A DNA stretch of 22,173 nt from positions 1 through 22,173 of the forward strand of contig CAZQEL010000003.1 in the NCBI GenBank assembly GCA_964591795.1, read 5' to 3'. A model generated the notes under the pieces. The model was not told the DNA's origin. It was given only the letters and a program-made list of their open reading frames with translations, and made no database searches. The translations under genes and the position numbers were made by a program. Of the stretch, positions 4,603 to 17,873 are shown in pieces. The stretch is from an uncultured archaeon (GTDB lineage Archaea; Iainarchaeota; Iainarchaeia; Iainarchaeales; CSSED10-239). The first letter of the stretch is position 1. Each line of letters starts with the position of its first letter.

Positions 4603-5067
4603 TTACTTTTTCTTATTTTTAAAAAGAAGATTAAATTTTTTGGTTGTATATAAAATATTTTTTCTTCCTTTTTTTTCAATAGATATTAAATCAAGATCTT
4701 TAAGTATTTTTAAATCCTCATAGGGTCTTTTTCTAGTAATTTTAAATTGCTCAACAGGTGTGTTTAAAGAAATAAATGCTAATGTTTTAAGCTCTGATTT
4801 TGAAAGAGTTGTTCCTGTTGCAAAAATATTAAATGAATGAAATTCAGGTTTAACTATTATTTCAAGTTTACCGTTATCAATTACTACTGCTAAAGAAGTT
4901 TTACGTTTAGTATAATCATCTATTAAATCAGCTATTTGAATATCAATAATATCTTTTAAAATATTTGGAAAAGAAGAATATATTTTCTTTAAAGAAATTG
5001 ATTTAGGGGATAAAAAAAGAATTGCCTCTATTGCTTGTTTTAAATAATCACTACTTGTTTGGTCCAT
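4603..5067 (-). CDS. scpB: Segregation and condensation protein B (ScpB)
   Basis: 154-aa ORF. It has the N-terminal AIEAILFLSPKSISLKKI (ScpB eaiLF.s.epls motif). The second winged-helix block is LSKSELKTLAFISLNTPVEQFKITRKRPYEDLKILKDLDLISIEKKGRKNILYTTKKF. Confidence 0.85.
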   Translation of the reverse strand: MDQTSSDYLKQAIEAILFLSPKSISLKKIYSSFPNILKDIIDIQIADLIDDYTKRKTSLAVVIDNGKLEIIVKPEFHSFNIFATGTTLSKSELKTLAFISLNTPVEQFKITRKRPYEDLKILKDLDLISIEKKGRKNILYTTKKFNLLFKNKKK

Positions 5068-5272
5068 ATTTAATCTCTATCTAACATTAATTGACTATAA
5101 AATCAACAATTACATCTAAAATATAATTTCCAGGAATAATAATTACCATTTCAATAGAAACTTAATTATTTTTATTTTTTATAAAAATTATACCTAATCA
5201 GAGTAAATTATTTTAAAAATATAAATATTTTAAATAGTTTGTTTTATAAATTTATTTTAAAAAAAATACTTA

Positions 5273-7018
5273 TCAGTTACAACTATTAGCATAATTGGAA
5301 ACACTCCCAGTAGTAGATACATTGTTACTATAACTACCCCAACAATAATAAGTTAAAAGATTCCATTCACAACATGAATAACCTCCAGCTTCACAAATAT
5401 CCTCACAATAGGAAATGCTGCAAAAACCATTTAACAAAATTCTATCAGATCCACTACAAAACTGTTCAACAATTAAAGAATTACAAGTAGTTGTTGGTAA
5501 AAATGTTGCTGTAATATCTTGATTAGAATCCATTACAACAGTACAAGTTAAATTTGTATCATAACTTGCACAATCACCACTCCATCCAGAAAAATAATTA
5601 CCAGTTTTTGGTGTTGCAGTTATTAAAAAAGAATTTGGATTTGTATTTATTCCTCTTGGATAATTACCAGTACAATTTGAAGAATACAAAGGACAATTTA
5701 TAGCACCACCTAATCCATAAACATTACCATTCCCAATAACCTTTAAATTAAAAGGATAAGTTATATAATCTGTATCAATTGATGCAGTTTTTGCAGAATC
5801 CATAACTAAAGTACAATTTTTATCTGTAGTTGCAGCAGCACAATCGCCCCCCCAAGTAGTTACATATCCAAACCATGGTTCTGCTCTAGTAAATATAACA
5901 GTAGAGTCTACTGGAAAATTAGCAGTACAAGGTGTAGAAGTACCACAATTAATCCCTTCAGGAGTACTTATAACTAAATTACCACTCCAATTAGCAAGCT
6001 TATTTAAAGTAAATAAATAAGTTGGAACAATAGTTGAAAAATTTGCAGTCAAAGTAGTTGCTTGAGCAGGCATTGTATAAGTGAAATATTCATTTGAACT
6101 TACTGACCCATTTAAATCAGTCCAATTTACAAAACTATAACCTAAATCATAATCTAAAGAAGTTGTAACACTAACACTCACAGATACAGGAGTATCAGAA
6201 GGATAATTACCATCACCAGCTAAAATAGCAGAAACTGAAGTTGGATTTTTAGCTAAAGTTAAATTATAAGTTGGAACAACAGCTGAAAAATTTGCAACAA
6301 CATTTTTATTAGCATTCATATTAACAATACAAGTTCCAATTCCTGAACAAGCTCCACTCCAACCAGTAAAACTACTACCAGCTGAAGTAACTGCAGTTAA
6401 AGTTACTGAAGTTCCAGAATCATAAGTTTGAAAACAATCAGTACCACAATCTATACCAGTTGGAGAACTTGTAACTATTCCTGTACCAGTACCGTTTCTT
6501 GAAACATTTAAAATATATGTTATAGAAGTTGCAACTATAAAATTTGCAGTTAAATTATAATCATTTGAAGGCATATTAAAACTATAATTTGCATTAGAAC
6601 TTACTACTGATCCATTTGAATCAGTCCAATTATAAAAAGTAAAACCTACTCCAGCAATAGCATTAACAGGAACCGAAGAACCAGAAGCATAAAGTCCAGA
6701 AGTAATAACAGTTCCATTACCAGTAATTAATAAAATTAAATTATAATTTGTTGCAGAAACAACAGGATCTTGTGGATAATTATTATCATTATAATTAGTT
6801 AAATCTGTTAAAAAATTATCTAAAGTTGCATCAGTTTTATTATCAATATCAGTTGCTTGATCAGTTTTAGATCCAATAAATCCAAATAAAATTGAAGCTA
6901 AAATAACCGAACCTAAAATAAGTACACTTAAAATGACAATCATTTCAATTGATACTTGAGCTTTTTTATTTTTTAAGTTTTTAAAATTAGTTTTATTTTT
7001 TAAAGATTTTTTAATCAT
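5273..7018 (-). CDS. Archaeal type IV pilin-like surface protein with five InlB-B/Listeria-Bacteroides-type repeats and a Cys-rich C-terminal module
   Basis: 581-aa ORF. The class III signal peptide has a basic leader ending KKAQ followed by VSIEMIVILSVLILGSVILASILFG (KGQ.S.E-type prepilin motif). Five repeats of about 80 aa follow. They alternate a ...F.NWTD.NGS...Y.F.MP...LTANF type with a Cys-containing GTGTGIVTSSPTGIDCGTDC...FTGWSGACSGIGTC...ANF type. There are 9 Cys in the last 70 residues and many N-x-S/T sequons. Confidence 0.85.
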   Translation of the reverse strand: MIKKSLKNKTNFKNLKNKKAQVSIEMIVILSVLILGSVILASILFGFIGSKTDQATDIDNKTDATLDNFLTDLTNYNDNNYPQDPVVSATNYNLILLITGNGTVITSGLYASGSSVPVNAIAGVGFTFYNWTDSNGSVVSSNANYSFNMPSNDYNLTANFIVATSITYILNVSRNGTGTGIVTSSPTGIDCGTDCFQTYDSGTSVTLTAVTSAGSSFTGWSGACSGIGTCIVNMNANKNVVANFSAVVPTYNLTLAKNPTSVSAILAGDGNYPSDTPVSVSVSVTTSLDYDLGYSFVNWTDLNGSVSSNEYFTYTMPAQATTLTANFSTIVPTYLFTLNKLANWSGNLVISTPEGINCGTSTPCTANFPVDSTVIFTRAEPWFGYVTTWGGDCAAATTDKNCTLVMDSAKTASIDTDYITYPFNLKVIGNGNVYGLGGAINCPLYSSNCTGNYPRGINTNPNSFLITATPKTGNYFSGWSGDCASYDTNLTCTVVMDSNQDITATFLPTTTCNSLIVEQFCSGSDRILLNGFCSISYCEDICEAGGYSCCEWNLLTYYCWGSYSNNVSTTGSVSNYANSCN

Positions 7019-7160
7019 AATTAATTATCAATTTATATATTATATATAATTATACATGTATTAAATTTATAAACCTTTTTAAAAATAGTTAAAATTAACT
7101 TAAAGTAATAAAACTATGTTTAAAACAATAAATTAACTATTAAACTTGCTATTTTAAAGT

Positions 7161-7250
7161 TTAAAAACAATCAATACCACAATCTATACCAATTGGATAA
7201 CTTGTAACTGTTCCTATACCAGTATCTACTTTAAATACAGATGATAAATA
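7161..7250 (-). pseudogene. Decayed repeat unit continuing in frame after the stop of the 177-aa pilin-like gene
   Basis: After the TAA at 7251-7253 the same frame reads YLSSVFKVDTGIGTVTSYPIGIDCGIDCF and then TAA (7161-7163). This parallels ...NVSRNGTGTGIVTSSPTGIDCGTDCFQ of the neighbouring genes. Confidence 0.7.
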
Positions 7251-7784
7251 TTAACCTAAAAATGAAAATGTTGCTGTAATATTTTTTGCAGAATCCATTA
7301 CAACAGTACAAATTCCAATTCCTGAACAAGCTCCATTCCAACCAGTAAAACTACTACCAGCTGAAGTAACTGCAGTTAAAGTTACTGAAGTTCCAGAATC
7401 ATAAGTTTGAGAACAATCAGTACCACAATCTATACCAGGTAAAAAACTTGTAACTATTCCTGTACCAGTACCGTTTCTTGAAACACTTAAAGTATATGGA
7501 GTTGAAGTTACATTTGCATCTTGCCCACCAGAACCATCATCATAAGTTGACAAGTTTGTTAAAAAATCAACAACAACAGCTTCAGTTTTATTATCAACAT
7601 CAGTTGCTTGATCAGTTTTTGAACTAAAAAAACCTAATAATACTGATGCCAAAACAATTGTAGCCAAAATAAGCACACTTAAAATAACAATCATTTCAAT
7701 TGAAACTTGAGCTTTTTTAGATTTTACTAAGTTCATTTTATTTTTATTTTTTAAAATATTTTTATAAATAGTTTTTTTAACCAT
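7251..7784 (-). CDS. Archaeal type IV pilin-like protein with a single Cys-containing InlB-B-type repeat (short paralog of 5273..7018)
   Basis: 177-aa ORF. It carries the same class III signal motif, KKAQVSIEMIVILSVLILATIVLASVLLG. It has one repeat, YTLSVSRNGTGTGIVTSFLPGIDCGTDCSQTYDSGTSVTLTAVTSAGSSFTGWNGACSGIGICTVVMDSAKNITATF. ATGATTAACT precedes the ATG at 7784. Confidence 0.85.
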   Translation of the reverse strand: MVKKTIYKNILKNKNKMNLVKSKKAQVSIEMIVILSVLILATIVLASVLLGFFSSKTDQATDVDNKTEAVVVDFLTNLSTYDDGSGGQDANVTSTPYTLSVSRNGTGTGIVTSFLPGIDCGTDCSQTYDSGTSVTLTAVTSAGSSFTGWNGACSGIGICTVVMDSAKNITATFSFLG

Positions 7785-7825
7785 AGTTAATCATAAATAT
7801 TTTTTATACATATAATATGTAGTTA

Positions 7826-7840
7826 CTATAAATATATAAA
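7826..7840 (-). promoter_or_regulatory. TATA-like element upstream of the 177-aa pilin-like gene (inside repeat copy 1)
   Basis: The minus strand reads TTTATATATTTATAG, 42-56 nt upstream of the ATG at 7784. The identical sequence recurs at 9159-9173 in repeat copy 2. Confidence 0.3.
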
Positions 7841-7868
7841 TCTTTGTTAAAACTGCTAAAATTAAAAA

Positions 7869-8150
7869 CTAAATTAACTTAATAAAAATTTCAAAAAAGA
7901 AATCATCTTACAAAACATTTATTTTTTGATCCTATGATAAAAATAGAAGTGGTATAAACAAATTGTTTACAACATCAAAATTAGTGAAATTTTTAAAAAA
8001 TAAATTTTTAAAGATCAAACAACCATTATTATCAGCAATTTCTTTAATTAAAGAATACAAAGTATTTATTTTAACCTTAATGTCTTTATTAATTCTTGGA
8101 ACAATAAACTCAATTTTAATTTTTTCCTTTATTATTCTTTCAAAATTTTT
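7869..8150 (-). pseudogene. Relic of the scpA 3' end (last ~94 codons) with two in-frame stops
   Basis: The minus-strand translation parallels the ScpA C-terminus (...VPRIN...INTLYS.IKE.ADN.GCL.FKNLF.K.FTNFDVVNNLFIPLLFLS). TAG at 7932-7934 replaces CAG and TAA at 7908-7910 replaces CAA. The N-terminal two-thirds of the gene are absent. Confidence 0.8.
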
Positions 8151-8170
8151 AAGTGCTAAAATATATGAAA

Positions 8171-8950
8171 TTAATTATAATCTTTTTCTACTAAATAATT
8201 ATCAAAAGCATATAATTTATTTGTTTTTTTATTCATAAAAATATTATACATATTAATATCTTCAATATCTATATTATTTTCTCTAAGTTTAGATCTAGCA
8301 CTAATTTCAAATTCGTTAAGAAAAGATAGCAATCTATTATTATTACTAGATTCTATGAATTCATTAACTAGAATAAATCTTTTTGGGTCCATATGCTCAT
8401 ATGCAATAAAAGATTTCCCTGATTCTTTATTTAAAAATGCAAAATATGGTTTTACTATATTTACTCCTAACCCTTCTAAAATATAAAGAGCTTTTACTTC
8501 ATTGTATGCATGTCTATTATATTCTTTAAAAACATGTGGAGATCCTTGTTTAAGAAATATTTTTTTAGAGCCATATTTTGTTTTAATATTCATAATAAAC
8601 ATTTGTAAAGAACTATTTGAATGTTTAGGAAGTGATTCTTTAATTACAGAAAATTCATATTTATTTTTAAATTTATTTATTCCAGATTTATTAATTAATT
8701 CACTTTCAGATTTAGAAAAAGAATCTATTATTTTTAAAAAATTAGGTAATTCCATCAGAATTTTTTTTGATTCAGCAGTATAAAACAAACCTTTTTTAAG
8801 AATTTTATTAAAATAAGTTATTTTCTTATTTATTTTAATATCATACTTTTGTCTTCTGACTGATTTTCTAACTTCATTAAAAATGGGTTTTTCTATTTGA
8901 TTTTTTATTTTTTTAATATCAAAATTTCCTTTTTTTAAAATTACAGCCAT
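8171..8950 (-). CDS. Hypothetical protein with a protein-kinase-like (RIO/Kdo-kinase-like) motif pattern
   Basis: 259-aa ORF in a genome where random frames close quickly. Motifs appear in kinase order. KIFLKQ is a candidate ATP lysine. NEVKALYILEGLGVNIVKPYF resembles the RIO-type E...L...G..VP.P block. IAYEHMD is hinge-like. DIEDINMYNIFMNKKTNKLYAFD matches hGDLsEyNIL....iyiID (catalytic D, N and metal D). TTGATTAATT precedes the ATG. Confidence 0.45.
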   Translation of the reverse strand: MAVILKKGNFDIKKIKNQIEKPIFNEVRKSVRRQKYDIKINKKITYFNKILKKGLFYTAESKKILMELPNFLKIIDSFSKSESELINKSGINKFKNKYEFSVIKESLPKHSNSSLQMFIMNIKTKYGSKKIFLKQGSPHVFKEYNRHAYNEVKALYILEGLGVNIVKPYFAFLNKESGKSFIAYEHMDPKRFILVNEFIESSNNNRLLSFLNEFEISARSKLRENNIDIEDINMYNIFMNKKTNKLYAFDNYLVEKDYN

Positions 8951-9143
8951 AATTAATCAATAAAATCCACAATATTTTCAAGAAGTTCAATCTATTAAGA
9001 TAAATTATTTAATTTTGCTCTTTCAATAATTCTAATATTTTTCCCTAGAAGAACATCATCTAACTTATCAAAGATTACAAATTTGTTATTTTCTATTAAC
9101 TTCTTTTTTAAATCTTCTGATTTTAATTCAAATATTTTATATA

Positions 9144-9483
9144 TATAATATGTAGTTACTATAAATATATAAATCTTTGTTAAAACTACTAAAATTAGAA
9201 ATTAAATTAACTTAATAAAAATTTCTGAAAAAAAATCATCTTGCCAAACATTTATTTTTTGATCCTGTGATAAAAATAGAAGTGGTATAAACAAATTGTT
9301 TACAACATCAAAATTAGTGAAATCTTTAGAAAATAAATTTTTAAAGGTCAAACAACCATCGTTGTCAGCACTTTCTTTGATTGAAGAATACAAAGTGTTT
9401 ATTCTAACATTGATATTTTCATTAATTCTTGGAACAACAAAATCAGTTTCAGTTTTTTCCTTTATCATTCTTTCAAGATTTTT
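9144..9483. repeat. Direct repeat copy 2 (authentic scpA 3' end plus 58 nt downstream)
   Basis: See copy 1. Positions 9202-9483 are the last 94 codons of the intact scpA. Positions 9144-9201 are the intergenic tail. Confidence 0.9.
9159..9173 (-). promoter_or_regulatory. Duplicate of the TATA-like element, here upstream of the kinase-like gene region
   Basis: Identical TTTATATATTTATAG on the minus strand. It lies about 210 nt upstream of the ATG at 8950. Confidence 0.2.
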
Positions 9484-9867
9484 TTTAGTAGGTTTATGCA
9501 TGATAAAATCAATTGCTTCAATTAATTCATCAAGTGAAACTTGACCTTCTTTATTTCTTATAGGATTATTTAAATTTAATGTGTTTAGTAAAATATCTTC
9601 ATCTTTTGGGAAAATAAGTTCGTCTTCTGGTTCTATACTTGTAAGTTTAAGAGTGTAAGCTTTTATTTTTAAAAGAATACTAGCAGCTAAAAGAGCATTT
9701 GCTGGAACTAAAAGATTAGCATCTTTAAGTGCAATTATTTTTTTAAGATAGAGATCAGTTAATGAAACTATATTAATATTCCAAATATCAAATTCATTTG
9801 ATTTAACAAGATCAAATAACAATAATTTCCAGTTTGGTTGATCAATAATAGTAATTAGTCTATCCAT
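9202..9867 (-). CDS. scpA: Segregation and condensation protein A (ScpA, kleisin)
   Basis: 221-aa ORF. The N-terminal NWKLLLFDLVKSNEFDIWNINIVSLTDLYLKKI matches the ScpA pLdLLl.Li.k.eiDI.di.i..it.qYl block. The size is typical. GGTGG lies 10 nt upstream of the ATG. Confidence 0.85.
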   Translation of the reverse strand: MDRLITIIDQPNWKLLLFDLVKSNEFDIWNINIVSLTDLYLKKIIALKDANLLVPANALLAASILLKIKAYTLKLTSIEPEDELIFPKDEDILLNTLNLNNPIRNKEGQVSLDELIEAIDFIMHKPTKKNLERMIKEKTETDFVVPRINENINVRINTLYSSIKESADNDGCLTFKNLFSKDFTNFDVVNNLFIPLLFLSQDQKINVWQDDFFSEIFIKLI

Positions 9868-9882
9868 AATTAATTAACCACC

Positions 9883-9950
9883 AAAAAAGAATAAAAAGTA
9901 GAAGGTTTTAGATATCTAAAACCTTAGCATTGAAGTTTTGCGCTTCAATG
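9883..9950 (-). terminator. Double hairpin followed by oligo-U tracts at the end of the 227-aa gene
   Basis: A perfect 24-nt palindrome AAGGTTTTAGAT/ATCTAAAACCTT (9902-9925) spans the stop codon. An adjacent hairpin CATTGAAG-7 nt-CTTCAATG lies at 9928-9950. On the minus strand these are followed by TTTTT and TTTTTT runs (9893-9897 and 9883-9888), just before the scpA SD. Confidence 0.5.
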
Positions 9951-10591
9951 TCACATAATTTAATTTTTTTACTTTGTCCTTCAATATATAAAACAGTATC
10001 TTTTTCAAAATAGATTGTAATAACATCAGTTATTAATCTAAATTTAACAGTTTTAGATTTTAATATTTCATCAAAAATTAAACCTAAATTTTCTGAAGGA
10101 ACAATTATATCTATACCTTGCTTTTTACCTTTAACTTTATTTGCAACTTCAACAATATCAACTGTACCCACCACATTAAACTTTAATATAAATTCCTTAA
10201 CATCAAAAGAATTAAATAATTTTTCAATATATCCCTTTGCGTTAATTGTATCTGAAAAAGTATATGTTCTGTAAGATCTATATCTTTCTAAAAAAGAATT
10301 AGCGTCTTCCATTTCTTTTTGTAAATCATTTACTTCTTCTTTTATTTCAGAAACAGTTAAATTCATTTTTTTAAATAAAGAAATTAATTTTCTTTTTTTG
10401 ATCTCTTCTTCAATATCTTTTTCAACATATGTATTTTTTTTAGCAATTTCTGCAATTTCTCTATAATCTATAATCAAATTATTTAAAATATCATGTAATG
10501 GACCATAAAGTTCAATAACTTTATTTGTCCTATAAAGACTCTTATTTAAAGATTCAAAAGATTTTTTTAGTTTATTATTTATATCAGTCAT
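9908..10591 (-). CDS. Hypothetical protein with an N-terminal coiled coil and a beta-rich C-terminal domain
   Basis: 227-aa ORF with GAGGG 5 nt upstream of the ATG. The N-terminal half has a heptad-like charged pattern. I recognise no family. Confidence 0.6.
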   Translation of the reverse strand: MTDINNKLKKSFESLNKSLYRTNKVIELYGPLHDILNNLIIDYREIAEIAKKNTYVEKDIEEEIKKRKLISLFKKMNLTVSEIKEEVNDLQKEMEDANSFLERYRSYRTYTFSDTINAKGYIEKLFNSFDVKEFILKFNVVGTVDIVEVANKVKGKKQGIDIIVPSENLGLIFDEILKSKTVKFRLITDVITIYFEKDTVLYIEGQSKKIKLCDIEAQNFNAKVLDI

Positions 10592-12802: not shown

Positions 12803-14233
12803 TTAGTTGTCAAATTTATACTTTATGGTACTTGATGTAAATGAAGGCCTGAAAAGAATCCTTATTGGATCTCTATTTGGATAATAGATTACTGCATCAT
12901 TATCTTTTATAGCAGCAATTTTTAATAAAGCTACATTTTCATCCCTAAAATCAGTTTTATACTTACTTGTAAATAAAGATGAAAGCACAGTATTATCTCT
13001 AATAATTTGAAGAATACTGTTTCCAAGATAAATATTATTAAAAACAAGACTTTGTTCAGGAAATACCAAAAGAACATCCTCTTTAACTGATAAGGAAATT
13101 TCTTCAACAATAGTTTTAATAAAATAAGGATAAATTGGATCTTTTTCATCAATAGAAATTATTTTTGCAGAACCAATATTTTTATATCTTTGTTTGAATA
13201 ATAATGAAACATCTGTTTTTCCAAAAAATTTATTATAAATTTTATTTAAAATGGTTAATTTTAAAATAACCCTTTGTTTTTCAAAATCATTAATTTCAGG
13301 ATTTATTGGAATTAATTTAATTCTTTCAATTAAATCATCTATTGTTATTACTTTATCATCATAAACAGCATGTAAAATATCTAAAGACACATCCTTAAAA
13401 GAAAAAATATTTACAAAAGCATCAAATGGTATTTTAAAAAGAGGTATTTTTATATCTAAATAATTAATTTTTTTAACAGGAAAACCAAATGGATCCATAT
13501 CAAGATTAAAATGAGTAAAAATATCTGAATTTTGTTGAGGGTAACCTAAACTTACATAACTATTAATACTATCAAAAACAACAACCATTTTTGAAGATAA
13601 TAAATAATTTTCACAAATAACTTTTGATATAAATAATCTTTGGTCTAAATTTGGTCCATAAACAAGAACTGATTTTAAATTAGAAAGAGAAGTTGTTACT
13701 GAAATATCTTTTTTCTTACCTAAAATTAATTTATCTAACGGACTACTAGATTTAAAATCTAAAGCCAAAGGCATATTTGATAATGATTTTAAAACTTCTG
13801 GATCTGAAAAAAAATAATTATTACTTTTTTCATCAGCCATTTTTAAAGAAATTAGTTTAATATTATATGATTTTATTACTGAAATTACAGAGCCTACCAT
13901 TTTATTTAATTCTAATATTTTTTTATCAACATGATATGACAAAGTATTAACATCAATATATTCTGTTTCAGTATGAAGTAGAAGATATTTAAAATTATTT
14001 TCAGTACCAATATCAACATGCTTATGATAAACAATTGCTGGATAAGGCAAAGTTTCTGCAAAAGTTTCAATATCACCTTTTACTACAAAAACTTTGTAAA
14101 CTTGGATAAGTGCATTAGTTTTATCTCTTAGTCTTAAAAAAGAAACAAAAATATCATCCTTATAAAGTATATTTAGTTCTTGATTACCATATTTGCCATC
14201 ATACAATGTGTTCCAAGTATTTAATGAAATCAT
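12803..14233 (-). CDS. Hypothetical protein, HerA/DUF87-like layout with degenerate Walker A and B motifs
   Basis: 476-aa ORF. LILGKKKDISVTTSLSNLKSVLVYGPNLDQRLFISKVICENYLLSSKMVVVFDSINSY follows the HerA pattern ilGk...v.l.l..L..H.li.G.tGSGKS.....li..l...vvvfD..gEY, but with GPNLDQR in place of G.GSGKS. LLVFPEQS sits where hhhhDEAH is expected. Confidence 0.45.
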   Translation of the reverse strand: MISLNTWNTLYDGKYGNQELNILYKDDIFVSFLRLRDKTNALIQVYKVFVVKGDIETFAETLPYPAIVYHKHVDIGTENNFKYLLLHTETEYIDVNTLSYHVDKKILELNKMVGSVISVIKSYNIKLISLKMADEKSNNYFFSDPEVLKSLSNMPLALDFKSSSPLDKLILGKKKDISVTTSLSNLKSVLVYGPNLDQRLFISKVICENYLLSSKMVVVFDSINSYVSLGYPQQNSDIFTHFNLDMDPFGFPVKKINYLDIKIPLFKIPFDAFVNIFSFKDVSLDILHAVYDDKVITIDDLIERIKLIPINPEINDFEKQRVILKLTILNKIYNKFFGKTDVSLLFKQRYKNIGSAKIISIDEKDPIYPYFIKTIVEEISLSVKEDVLLVFPEQSLVFNNIYLGNSILQIIRDNTVLSSLFTSKYKTDFRDENVALLKIAAIKDNDAVIYYPNRDPIRILFRPSFTSSTIKYKFDN

Positions 14234-16747: not shown

Positions 16748-16930
16748 ATGCTTACTAAAAAAATTATAATCACTAAAAAACATTTTAATATGATGATTAA
16801 AGATATATTAATAGATTTAAATATTAATCCAGAAACGGTTCTTGTAAAAATAAAAGATAAATTTACACCAATATCCTATGTTATTAAAAAAAAAACAGAA
16901 CTAGAAGTTTTAGAAGTTATTAAAGTGTGA
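16748..16930 (+). CDS. Small ThiS/MoaD-like beta-grasp candidate lacking a C-terminal Gly-Gly
   Basis: 60-aa ORF ending 8 nt before ttuA. The pattern KIIIT..HFNM.IKDILIDLNINPETVLVKIKDKF.P.SYVIKKKTELEVLEVIKV follows the ThiS layout (l.dll..l.i....v.v.vN...v......l.dgD.vei...v.GG), but it ends IKV-stop. Confidence 0.4.
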   Translation: MLTKKIIITKKHFNMMIKDILIDLNINPETVLVKIKDKFTPISYVIKKKTELEVLEVIKV

Positions 16931-16937
16931 AATAAAT

Positions 16938-17873
16938 ATGAATATTAAATGTAGTAAATGCCAAAAAGATGCTATGATTTATCTACCCTATGGAAAACAT
17001 AATCTTTGTAAAGCTCACTTTAATCATTTTTTTGAAAGTAGAATGAAAAAAACAATTAGACAATTTAAATTATTTTCAAATAAAGATTATCTCGGAATAG
17101 CAACCTCTGGTGGTAAAGACTCAATGGTGTTATTATACTTAATAAATAAAATATTTAAATCAAAAAGAATTAAATTTTGTGCTATTTTTGTAGACGAAGG
17201 AATAAATAATTATTCTAACAAAACTTTTCAAGTTGTTAAAACCTTTTGTAAAAATAACGATATTAAATTAGTTTATTCATCACACAAAAAAGAATTTGGA
17301 ATTTCAACACAAGAAATTGGTAAAAAACATGATAAACGTGAAGGAACTATTTGCACATATTGTGGAGTATTAAGAAGAAAAACTCTAAATAAACTTGCAA
17401 AACAAGAAAAAGTAACTTTAGTGCTCACTGGACATAATCTTGATGATGAATGTCAAACAATTTTAATGAATCTTTTAGATAATGATATAATTAGATTTTT
17501 TAGAACAGGGCCTTATGCAGGAATACTTAATTTAGAATATACAAAACCAAGAATTAAACCTTTTTATTTAACTCCAGAAAAAGAAATTGCAGCATATGCA
17601 CTTTATAATAAAATCCCATTTTATGATTCTAATTGTCCATTTTTCAGAACTGCAAAAAGAAATCACTTTAGAAGTTTTTTAAATGAAACTGAAAGTTTAC
17701 ATCCAGGGTCTAAATTTTCATTAATTAAATCTTTTTTAAAAATTAAAGAAATAAAAGATATTAAAAATACAATTAAAGATTTAAAACCAATAAGAAGATG
17801 TAAAGAATGTGGCGAAGAAACCAGTCAAGACATTTGTAAGTCCTGTGAATTATTAAAAAAATTTAAGAAATAA
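16938..17873 (+). CDS. ttuA: tRNA 2-thiolation PP-loop ATPase, TtuA/NcsA family
   Basis: 311-aa ORF. It has the PP-loop GIATSGGKDSMVLLYL and an N-terminal zinc finger, CSKCQK...CKAHF. The C-terminal zinc finger is CKECGEETSQDICKSCE. The central Cys residues (CTYCG, CPF) are positioned like the Fe-S ligands of TtuA. Confidence 0.85.
   Translation: MNIKCSKCQKDAMIYLPYGKHNLCKAHFNHFFESRMKKTIRQFKLFSNKDYLGIATSGGKDSMVLLYLINKIFKSKRIKFCAIFVDEGINNYSNKTFQVVKTFCKNNDIKLVYSSHKKEFGISTQEIGKKHDKREGTICTYCGVLRRKTLNKLAKQEKVTLVLTGHNLDDECQTILMNLLDNDIIRFFRTGPYAGILNLEYTKPRIKPFYLTPEKEIAAYALYNKIPFYDSNCPFFRTAKRNHFRSFLNETESLHPGSKFSLIKSFLKIKEIKDIKNTIKDLKPIRRCKECGEETSQDICKSCELLKKFKK

Follow-up and report, generated by a model that had tools for sequence, protein, structure and literature searches.

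In a 22,173-nt stretch of DNA from an uncultured archaeon (contig CAZQEL010000003.1; hereafter, the window), the 3′ end of scpA, the gene for the kleisin subunit of the SMC complex, occurs twice, as direct repeats of 351 nt that bracket an insert of 982 nt, X. One repeat copy, R2, completes a functional scpA gene, and the other, R1, is a decaying relic. X is a lineage-specific chromosomal fragment and not a mobile element; it carries the remnant of a gene for replication factor A (RPA), here called psi-rpa, and an intact kinase-like gene, ORF259 (ORF, open reading frame). We infer, tentatively and with somewhat less than even confidence, that X was captured as a foreign chromosomal fragment by one-step illegitimate recombination with a 351-bp duplication of the target. 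The DNA belongs to a DPANN archaeon of the Iainarchaeota/Diapherotrites, one very rich in A+T and related to "Candidatus Forterrea"; TFB and an archaeal-type gene content agree with this placement.

The scpA 3′ end is duplicated around an insert

A repeat finder returned R1 and R2 as the largest direct repeat of the window (coordinates in Table 1). The two copies align at a fixed offset of 1333 nt with no indels and 34 mismatches (90.3% identity), four of which fall in the 69-nt spacer part, and their longest identical block is 45 nt. Beyond the limits of the repeat, identity at this offset is about 13 to 50%, the level expected in sequence of 77% A+T. A preliminary description of this DNA had counted 32 mismatches in 340 nt (7811-8150 against 9144-9483), and our recount gave exactly that number; the full repeat, at 351 nt, is longer. 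With the repeat set at this length, the insert that had been placed between the copies is indeed present but measures 982 nt (8151-9132) and not 993 nt. Copy 2 is the genuine end of scpA, as had been described (93 codons plus the stop), but the homologous noncoding tail is 69 nt long instead of 58 nt.

The R1-X-R2 structure is real and no assembly artifact, because an independent assembly, L014 (JGI 3300039186), spans all of it, which refutes the possibility of an assembly chimera raised at the outset. This 15.4-kb contig is colinear without gaps with positions 16945-7100 of the window, at 99.6% identity, and runs in one piece from scpA through R2, X, and R1 into the pilin-like gene. Parts of the structure also appear in two contigs of ENA assembly ERZ27316756: L001 crosses the R2/X junction and reaches 8875, and L003 starts at 8097 within R1 and runs across the R1/pilin boundary and through the pilin-like genes to Lon. 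The Logan contig L002 ends at 9143, the exact edge of the 45-nt block identical in both copies. Logan assembly graphs use k = 31, and such an end is therefore the behavior expected if the read set holds both copies.

R2 completes scpA, and R1 is a relic

The identity of ScpA is assigned from a profile match above the cutoff, from the presence of scpB downstream in the same orientation, and from the adjacency of scpA and scpB in the more distant relative L011. R2 is joined to the 5′ part of scpA, its reading frame is open, and its C-terminal residues are conserved with those of relatives. R1 has neither a start codon nor the 5′ part of the gene; its homology to scpA stops at codon 128 (position 8150). 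Both in-frame stops reported for it earlier are there (CAG to TAG at 7932-7934 and CAA to TAA at 7908-7910), and its terminator has changed from TAA to TAG. The preliminary description had taken this copy for a truncated, decaying relic rather than a second scpA, and so it is. The R1 copy of the spacer still precedes a pilin-like gene.

The substitutions between the copies are strongly asymmetric. Codon changes comprise 21 nonsynonymous and 7 synonymous ones, with a ratio of nonsynonymous to synonymous rates (dN/dS) of 0.56. In 23 of the 30 coding differences, R1 has A or T where R2 has G or C (six are the reverse), and the G+C content is 16.5% for R1 and 21.1% for R2. This is the signature of an R1 drifting under the AT-biased mutation of the genome and an R2 held by selection. 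Parsimony against six outgroup sequences assigned 14 changes to R1 (11 of them GC to AT, including both stops) and 9 to R2. However, we do not rely on this 14:9 split for polarizing the substitutions, given the homoplasy with AT-rich outgroups: six of the nine changes assigned to R2 are T to C at sites where those outgroups have T, and they are probably C-to-T changes in R1 that coincide with the T of the outgroups.

The 9.7% divergence between R1 and R2 is more than 20 times the 0.15 to 0.4% found between the window strain and L014. Thus, the event is old relative to the split of these strains and young relative to the divergence from Forterrea-like genomes. It is not bracketed more finely, because a database of 5.8 billion proteins held no intermediate relative, with ScpA at 80 to 98% identity, that could serve for dating.

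Single-nucleotide polymorphisms (SNPs) between the window strain and L014 cluster at 8927-9442, over psi-rpa and R2, where 14 occur in 516 nt. R1 is identical in the two strains (no SNPs), and the density is 0.15% over the 7.3 kb upstream. In ScpA the SNPs cause four amino acid changes, all in the C-terminal domain and none in the N-terminal 127 residues. The cluster looks like a recombination tract or the result of locally relaxed or positive selection; localized SNP-dense patches in "Ca. Forterrea" have been attributed to homologous recombination (PMC5905446). Gene conversion between R1 and R2 does not explain it: at the nine SNPs within R2, the R1 state matches the L014 allele four times and the window allele five times, with no consistent sign of such an exchange.

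X carries an rpa relic and an intact kinase-like gene

The G+C content of X (19.7%) is host-like, near the 23.5% of the window. Its ends lack terminal inverted repeats (the best alignment between them is 10 nt long and A/T-rich) and a short target-site duplication, the 351-nt duplication not being short, and X encodes no transposase, so the hallmarks of a transposon or insertion sequence are missing. Nor does it look like a site-specific integrative element: in agreement with the preliminary description, the 20 larger ORFs of the window scanned against Pfam held no integrase, transposase, or other recombinase domain. Viral contigs yielded no relatives of X, and neither they nor the protein databases, where a single other, distant homologue context turned up, yielded a plasmid, virus, or circle equal to X plus one repeat; the search that had been proposed for a free or relocated 1333-bp unit thus came back empty. 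A simple tandem duplication, which had been named as another possible origin in a diverged form, is excluded, since only the repeat is doubled and X occurs once.

The ATG-less remnant noted earlier between the copies is real and is the relic of a gene for replication factor A. In tblastn comparisons, psi-rpa is 50% identical to the C terminus of the product encoded immediately ahead of P0002, the ORF259 homologue in L015 (E value, 1.8e-12), and 45% identical to the product of the gene upstream of P0004 in L032/L033. The intact C terminus in L015 identifies the domain. It matches positions 692-791 of 796 of the NCBIfam model NF009030, "replication factor A" (E value, 1.5e-9, at a score far below the curated cutoff of that full-length model), and scores 26.6 bits with Pfam Rep_fac-A_C, slightly under the cutoff of 28.5. 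The two stops of psi-rpa are common to the window strain and L014, and four of the five SNPs between these strains in psi-rpa alter an amino acid, as expected of a pseudogene. Like R1, psi-rpa is a relic.

No protein similar to psi-rpa was found among the 5.8 billion, a collection drawn from NCBI, JGI, ENA, and Logan that does contain this organism's own ScpA. This argues against psi-rpa being a copy of the organism's own rpa, although a native rpa gene may possibly have escaped assembly. Most probably, X was donated by an rpa-then-kinase-like locus of another archaeon.

The gene described as kinase-like in the preliminary account is ORF259. Its family is very small, with only nine representatives among 1.84 billion proteins, and it belongs to no family in Pfam, NCBIfam, PADLOC, or PHROG. 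Residues K134, E151, D231, N236, and D250 are invariant in all nine members, and this Lys, Glu, D-x4-N, and Asp follow one another in the order typical of protein kinases. An AlphaFold2 model built from the nine-sequence alignment reached a predicted local distance difference test score (pLDDT) of 76.7 and a predicted template modeling (TM) score (pTM) of 0.74. Its best 50 Foldseek matches in the PDB were all protein kinases, at weak scores (E values of ≥2e-3; TM score of ~0.4). The best Pfam kinase model was Kdo, with an E value of 0.028 and hits in two of the nine members; none was significant, and a profile search of the PDB was negative. With the structure predicted in this way, "kinase-like" is a reasonable label but not a proven one. 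A DNA invertase model gave only 15 bits, far below threshold. We also considered a viral, defense-system, or phage origin for ORF259 and found nothing to suggest one in viral contigs, PADLOC, or PHROG. No second ORF259 paralogue was found.

The context of an ORF259 homologue was readable in three other organisms, and in two of them the homologue lies directly downstream of the gene for replication factor A; the contigs concerned (L015:1-1108, L032:2-1215, and L033:1-1370) have 25 to 27% GC and look archaeal. A different gene stands upstream in L031. In these contigs, rpa and the kinase-like gene after it form a conserved pair, which in X is cut in the middle of rpa, and the family could consist of RPA-directed kinases.

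Related genomes carry the empty site

On the minus strand of the window, the order is a thioredoxin-reductase-like gene, orf227, scpA, the 69-nt spacer, the insert, R1, two pilin-like genes, scpB, and a gene for a Lon-like protease. ScpA is 74 to 80% identical to its counterparts in "Ca. Forterrea multitransposorum" (complete genome, CP045477) and several Iainarchaeum/Diapherotrites metagenome-assembled genomes, and the trxB-orf227-scpA synteny is conserved in relatives. The empty site that the preliminary description had proposed to look for was found in eight loci (L007, L008, L009, L016, L017, L029, L034, and L035), where pilin-like genes follow scpA directly, 113 to 135 nt after it; scpB and Lon come next in those whose contig reaches that far. 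A further contig, L010, ends just after scpA, and in these nine loci ScpA is 76 to 80% identical to that of the window. Counted down to 74% ScpA identity, 12 related loci have scpA running straight into pilin-like genes or the end of the contig. The spacer is recognizably conserved downstream of scpA in Forterrea. In more distant relatives, scpA and scpB are separated by 72 nt (L011) to about 2 kb.

Neither ORF259 nor rpa lies between scpA and scpB in any of the 24 related loci examined, and no relative has two copies of scpA. X is therefore confined to the lineage of the window strain and L014, and the repeats do flank a lineage-specific insert, as had been supposed.

Table 1. Features of the R1-X-R2 locus and its surroundings, in window coordinates
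Feature	Coordinates	Strand	Remarks
scpA, intact, 221 aa, kleisin subunit of SMC complex	9202..9867	-	Pfam SMC_ScpA (PF02616), 42.9 bits versus cutoff of 24.6
R2, functional repeat copy	9133..9483	-	Last 93 codons of scpA plus stop (9202-9483) and 69-nt scpA/pilin spacer (9133-9201)
Insert X, 982 nt	8151..9132	-	rpa 3′ end and kinase-like gene; absent between scpA and scpB in 24 related loci
psi-rpa, last ~62 codons of replication factor A (RPA) gene	8956..9144	-	Two adjacent in-frame stops, no start
ORF259, intact, 259 aa, kinase-fold-like gene	8171..8950	-	Very small uncharacterized family; AlphaFold2/Foldseek, invariant residues
R1, relic repeat copy	7800..8150	-	Pseudo-scpA 3′ end (7869-8150) and spacer copy (7800-7868)
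Pilin-like gene, 177 aa, InlB B-repeat/Flg_new_2 domain	7251..7784	-	Pfam PF18998; native downstream neighbor of scpA
Third, older, more diverged copy of the 69-nt spacer	7019..7098	-	Upstream of the 581-aa pilin-like gene
Second pilin-like gene, 581 aa, InlB B-repeat domain	5273-7018	-	
scpB, usual partner of scpA	4603..5067	-	Pfam SMC_ScpB, 63.6 bits; parted from scpA by pilin cluster and insert

A proposed one-step mechanism and its rivals

At the R2/X junction, the end of the spacer, at a point which in the R1 context lies ~10 to 15 nt ahead of the pilin start codon, is fused to the middle of rpa. At the X/R1 junction, the sequence 20 nt past the ORF259 stop is fused to codon 128 of scpA. 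Both junctions between X and the repeats are illegitimate joins.

A one-step illegitimate event could produce this arrangement as follows. The ancestral order would have been scpA, a spacer of ~80 nt, the pilin-like genes, scpB, and Lon. A 982-bp fragment of an rpa/kinase-like locus would have joined this chromosome nonhomologously or via microhomology, with one join at the end of the scpA/pilin spacer and the other at codon 128 within scpA. Because the two joins lie 351 bp apart, that length of target would come to stand on both sides of X. Two chromosome copies might have been end-joined at different breakpoints with the captured fragment between them or, equivalently, replication might have switched template to the fragment and then back to a point 351 bp behind. 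The upstream copy, R2, would keep scpA complete, the downstream copy, R1, would leave the pilin-like gene its own upstream region, and selection would retain only a product with both. Only an insertion that duplicates the scpA end leaves scpA functional, which would explain the survival of so long a duplication. Later, AT-biased mutation would have eroded the rpa fragment and the scpA portion of R1 as pseudogenes, with scpA and the kinase-like gene remaining intact. The duplicated spacer may also supply a copy of a promoter ahead of the insert.

Several points weigh against a one-step event. Only a possible AAAATATTT overlap is seen at the R2/X join, which is weak evidence in DNA of 80% A+T. 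A target duplication of 351 bp is unusually long for prokaryotic end-joining. Parsimony places 9 of the 30 coding differences on the R2 lineage, which would fit an origin of the copies from two diverged alleles, but homoplasy under AT bias is an equally good explanation of these assignments. Finally, homologous recombination has been documented in the closest named relative, "Ca. Forterrea" (PMC5905446), and routes based on it therefore stay plausible.

The first such route, a weaker rival that our results do not support and that we consider somewhat unlikely, is the one favored in the preliminary description, a Campbell-type integration in which a small circle composed of X and the 351-bp scpA-3′/spacer segment crossed over once with the chromosomal scpA end by means of the host's homologous recombination. 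An R-X-R topology with an empty site in relatives is precisely what such an integration would leave, no recombinase would be required, homologous recombination shapes populations of the related "Ca. Forterrea," and diverged alleles would account for those differences that polarize to the R2 lineage. However, X is a random-looking chromosomal piece that begins mid-rpa, and the circle would have to consist of two truncated chromosomal pieces, one from mid-scpA to the spacer and the other from mid-rpa to the end of ORF259, with no function in replication or mobility. The same two illegitimate joins would be needed, plus a circularization and a crossover; neither the viral collection nor the protein databases held the unit or X in a free form or elsewhere; and the asymmetric GC-to-AT decay suggests that R1 derives from the resident allele.

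Recombination in two steps is, in our judgment, unlikely. A larger rpa/kinase fragment would first have entered scpA at codon 128, and intact scpA would then have been restored, from another chromosome copy or a related cell, by homology-facilitated illegitimate recombination. This second step would combine homology upstream with an illegitimate join at the spacer/rpa boundary and would displace the original 3′ end as R1. Such a history accounts for the arbitrary truncation of rpa exactly at the end of the spacer and for the abrupt mid-gene start of R1; derived states in both copies fit it as well, and so does the clustering of SNPs over psi-rpa and R2, a pointer to recombination in that segment. 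Its weakness is that two rare events would have to have occurred, with a cell remaining viable in between on a disrupted scpA. The lineage has provided no direct evidence of polyploidy or DNA uptake, and the intermediate is missing among genomes, as is any ScpA at 80 to 98% identity in the database.

The richness of this locus in partial duplications and pilin-like relics could also reflect an older duplication followed by loss, either of a second scpA whose 5′ part was overwritten by X or within a large tandem duplication that reached the organism's own rpa/kinase locus and was then trimmed by deletion. The X/R1 join does resemble the novel junction of a tandem duplication. We nevertheless regard this history as very unlikely: relatives have a single scpA, ORF259 has no second paralogue and psi-rpa no close rpa among the 5.8 billion proteins, and the homology of R1 to scpA ends sharply at 8150 with no trace of the 5′ part.

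Hardly credible is an assembly artifact, with a strain variant of the scpA end misplaced as a second copy. Two public short-read assemblies do break in or near the region (8097, 8875, and 9143), but L014 comes from another sample and spans everything colinearly, copy 1 has stops and, in separate contigs, adjoins unique sequence at either end, and a 9.7% difference between the copies makes k-mer collapse no issue.

A second insertion in the sister strain

L014 contains another insertion, of 1.54 kb (L014:466-2034), with genes for a radical-SAM protein (332 aa) and an AAA_18-family protein (150 aa). It sits exactly between a gene for a 60-aa protein (p60) and a TtuA-like gene, with the same 28-nt sequence, TATTAAAGTGTGAAATAAATATGAATAT (gene orientation), directly repeated on either side. 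This sequence takes in the final four codons of the 60-aa gene, the intervening spacer, and eight nt from the start of the TtuA ORF. The repeat holds both the stop of the 60-aa gene and the TtuA start codon, and the radical-SAM ORF thus begins with the duplicated TtuA start (MNI). The corresponding empty site is present in the window (16899-16945) and in the relatives L007 and L009. No recombinase was found near the insertion, which is very recent and leaves both neighboring genes intact.

This hints that insertions with target duplication recur in the lineage, which now offers two independent examples: scpA, with 351 bp duplicated, and, in L014, the p60/TtuA junction, with 28 bp. A broader proposal, that DPANN archaea of this group repeatedly gain cassettes without a recombinase, duplicating tens to hundreds of base pairs of target and leaving the flanking genes intact, with the scpA-scpB interval as a possible preferred site, seems to us decidedly doubtful.

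The pilin cluster and other features of the window

The third copy of the spacer, upstream of the 581-aa pilin-like gene, gave a local alignment score of 50 against 26.8 ± 4.6 for shuffled sequences, a score that none of 500 shuffles reached. It is the paralogous upstream region of a pilin-like gene, without extension into scpA sequence. We considered serial cassettes of scpA fragments and rejected them: beyond the third spacer copy, the match to the scpA part is not significant (263 and 141 of 500 shuffles reach the score), and the spacer between the 581-aa pilin-like gene and scpB contains no R-like sequence. A 258-aa ORF before scpB in Forterrea, examined as a candidate homologue of ORF259, turned out to encode another pilin-like protein.

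Partial duplications and relics abound in the pilin-like cluster (window 5100-7800). The 177-aa and 581-aa genes share segments that are 88 to 95% identical (6284-6533/7263-7512); a fragment of the pilin domain with 80% identity lies just past the stop of the 177-aa gene (7157-7251), and a degenerate pilin 5′ end is found at 5140-5180, upstream of scpB.

Across Iainarchaeota-like genomes (L007-L013, L016-L030, and L034), the scpA-scpB interval varies from 72 nt to 5.4 kb, and in the Forterrea group it is filled by pilin-like (Flg_new_2) genes of varying number and size. It is thus a hypervariable locus between two conserved partners. The gene orf227 (9908-10591), which matches no Pfam family, precedes scpA in all relatives at 53 to 76% identity and may be an unrecognized partner of the SMC/ScpAB system. 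An ORF of 476 aa at 12803-14233 likewise has no Pfam family, and its synteny is kept across all relatives. Positions 1-54 hold a minus-strand tRNA gene (Rfam tRNA, 41.9 bits) that is cut by the window start; ARAGORN was silent on it because of this truncation.

Comparison with known systems

The locus records a clean, datable gene gain without mobile-element machinery in an uncultivated, genome-reduced archaeon. The ancestral empty site, the original neighborhood of the insert (rpa, then the kinase-like gene), and the decaying relics can be seen together. The locus illustrates that a long target duplication can rescue an otherwise disruptive insertion in scpA, points to the stretch between scpA and scpB as variable in Iainarchaeota, and brings to light a tiny uncharacterized kinase-like family tied to replication factor A. 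Its value is that of a case study more than of a discovery.

Four known kinds of rearrangement invite comparison. In the Campbell products of suicide or integrative plasmids, as here, direct repeats of a gene fragment flank the insert, the gene is rebuilt on one side and truncated on the other, and no dedicated recombinase is required. Unlike such plasmids, X has no plasmid or element features and would form a circle of two truncated chromosomal pieces with no known circular form, and the repeat copies have diverged by 9.7%.

Some integrative elements insert at a gene's 3′ end and bring a replacement end in attP; they similarly leave the target gene intact and a displaced 3′ copy at the far end. 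They differ from our locus by their integrase and their element-sized cargo, both absent here, and by a short identical core in place of a long, evenly diverged repeat; moreover, X begins mid-gene.

Homology-facilitated illegitimate recombination occurs in naturally transformable bacteria (Acinetobacter and Streptococcus pneumoniae). It resembles the present case in that foreign DNA is fixed beside a homologous anchor through one illegitimate join with no recombinase gene. It could apply here only with a donor that already had scpA sequence joined to X, or through two successive events, and it usually gives deletions in the recipient, in contrast to the 351-bp duplication at scpA.

In illegitimate duplication-insertions, filler DNA is found at the junction of a duplication, through microhomology-mediated end joining or the template switching of microhomology-mediated break-induced replication (MMBIR) and fork stalling and template switching (FoSTeS). 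Most descriptions of them come from eukaryotes and from experimental systems in bacteria. The locus shares with them two directly oriented copies separated by unrelated DNA, two intragenic joins without site specificity, and a possible short A/T microhomology at one join. It departs from them in its unusual filler, 982 bp with a whole functional gene and a likely foreign origin; that it arose by such a mechanism is our proposal. R1-X-R2 thus adds a further case to a known type of rearrangement and fits current understanding without overturning it.

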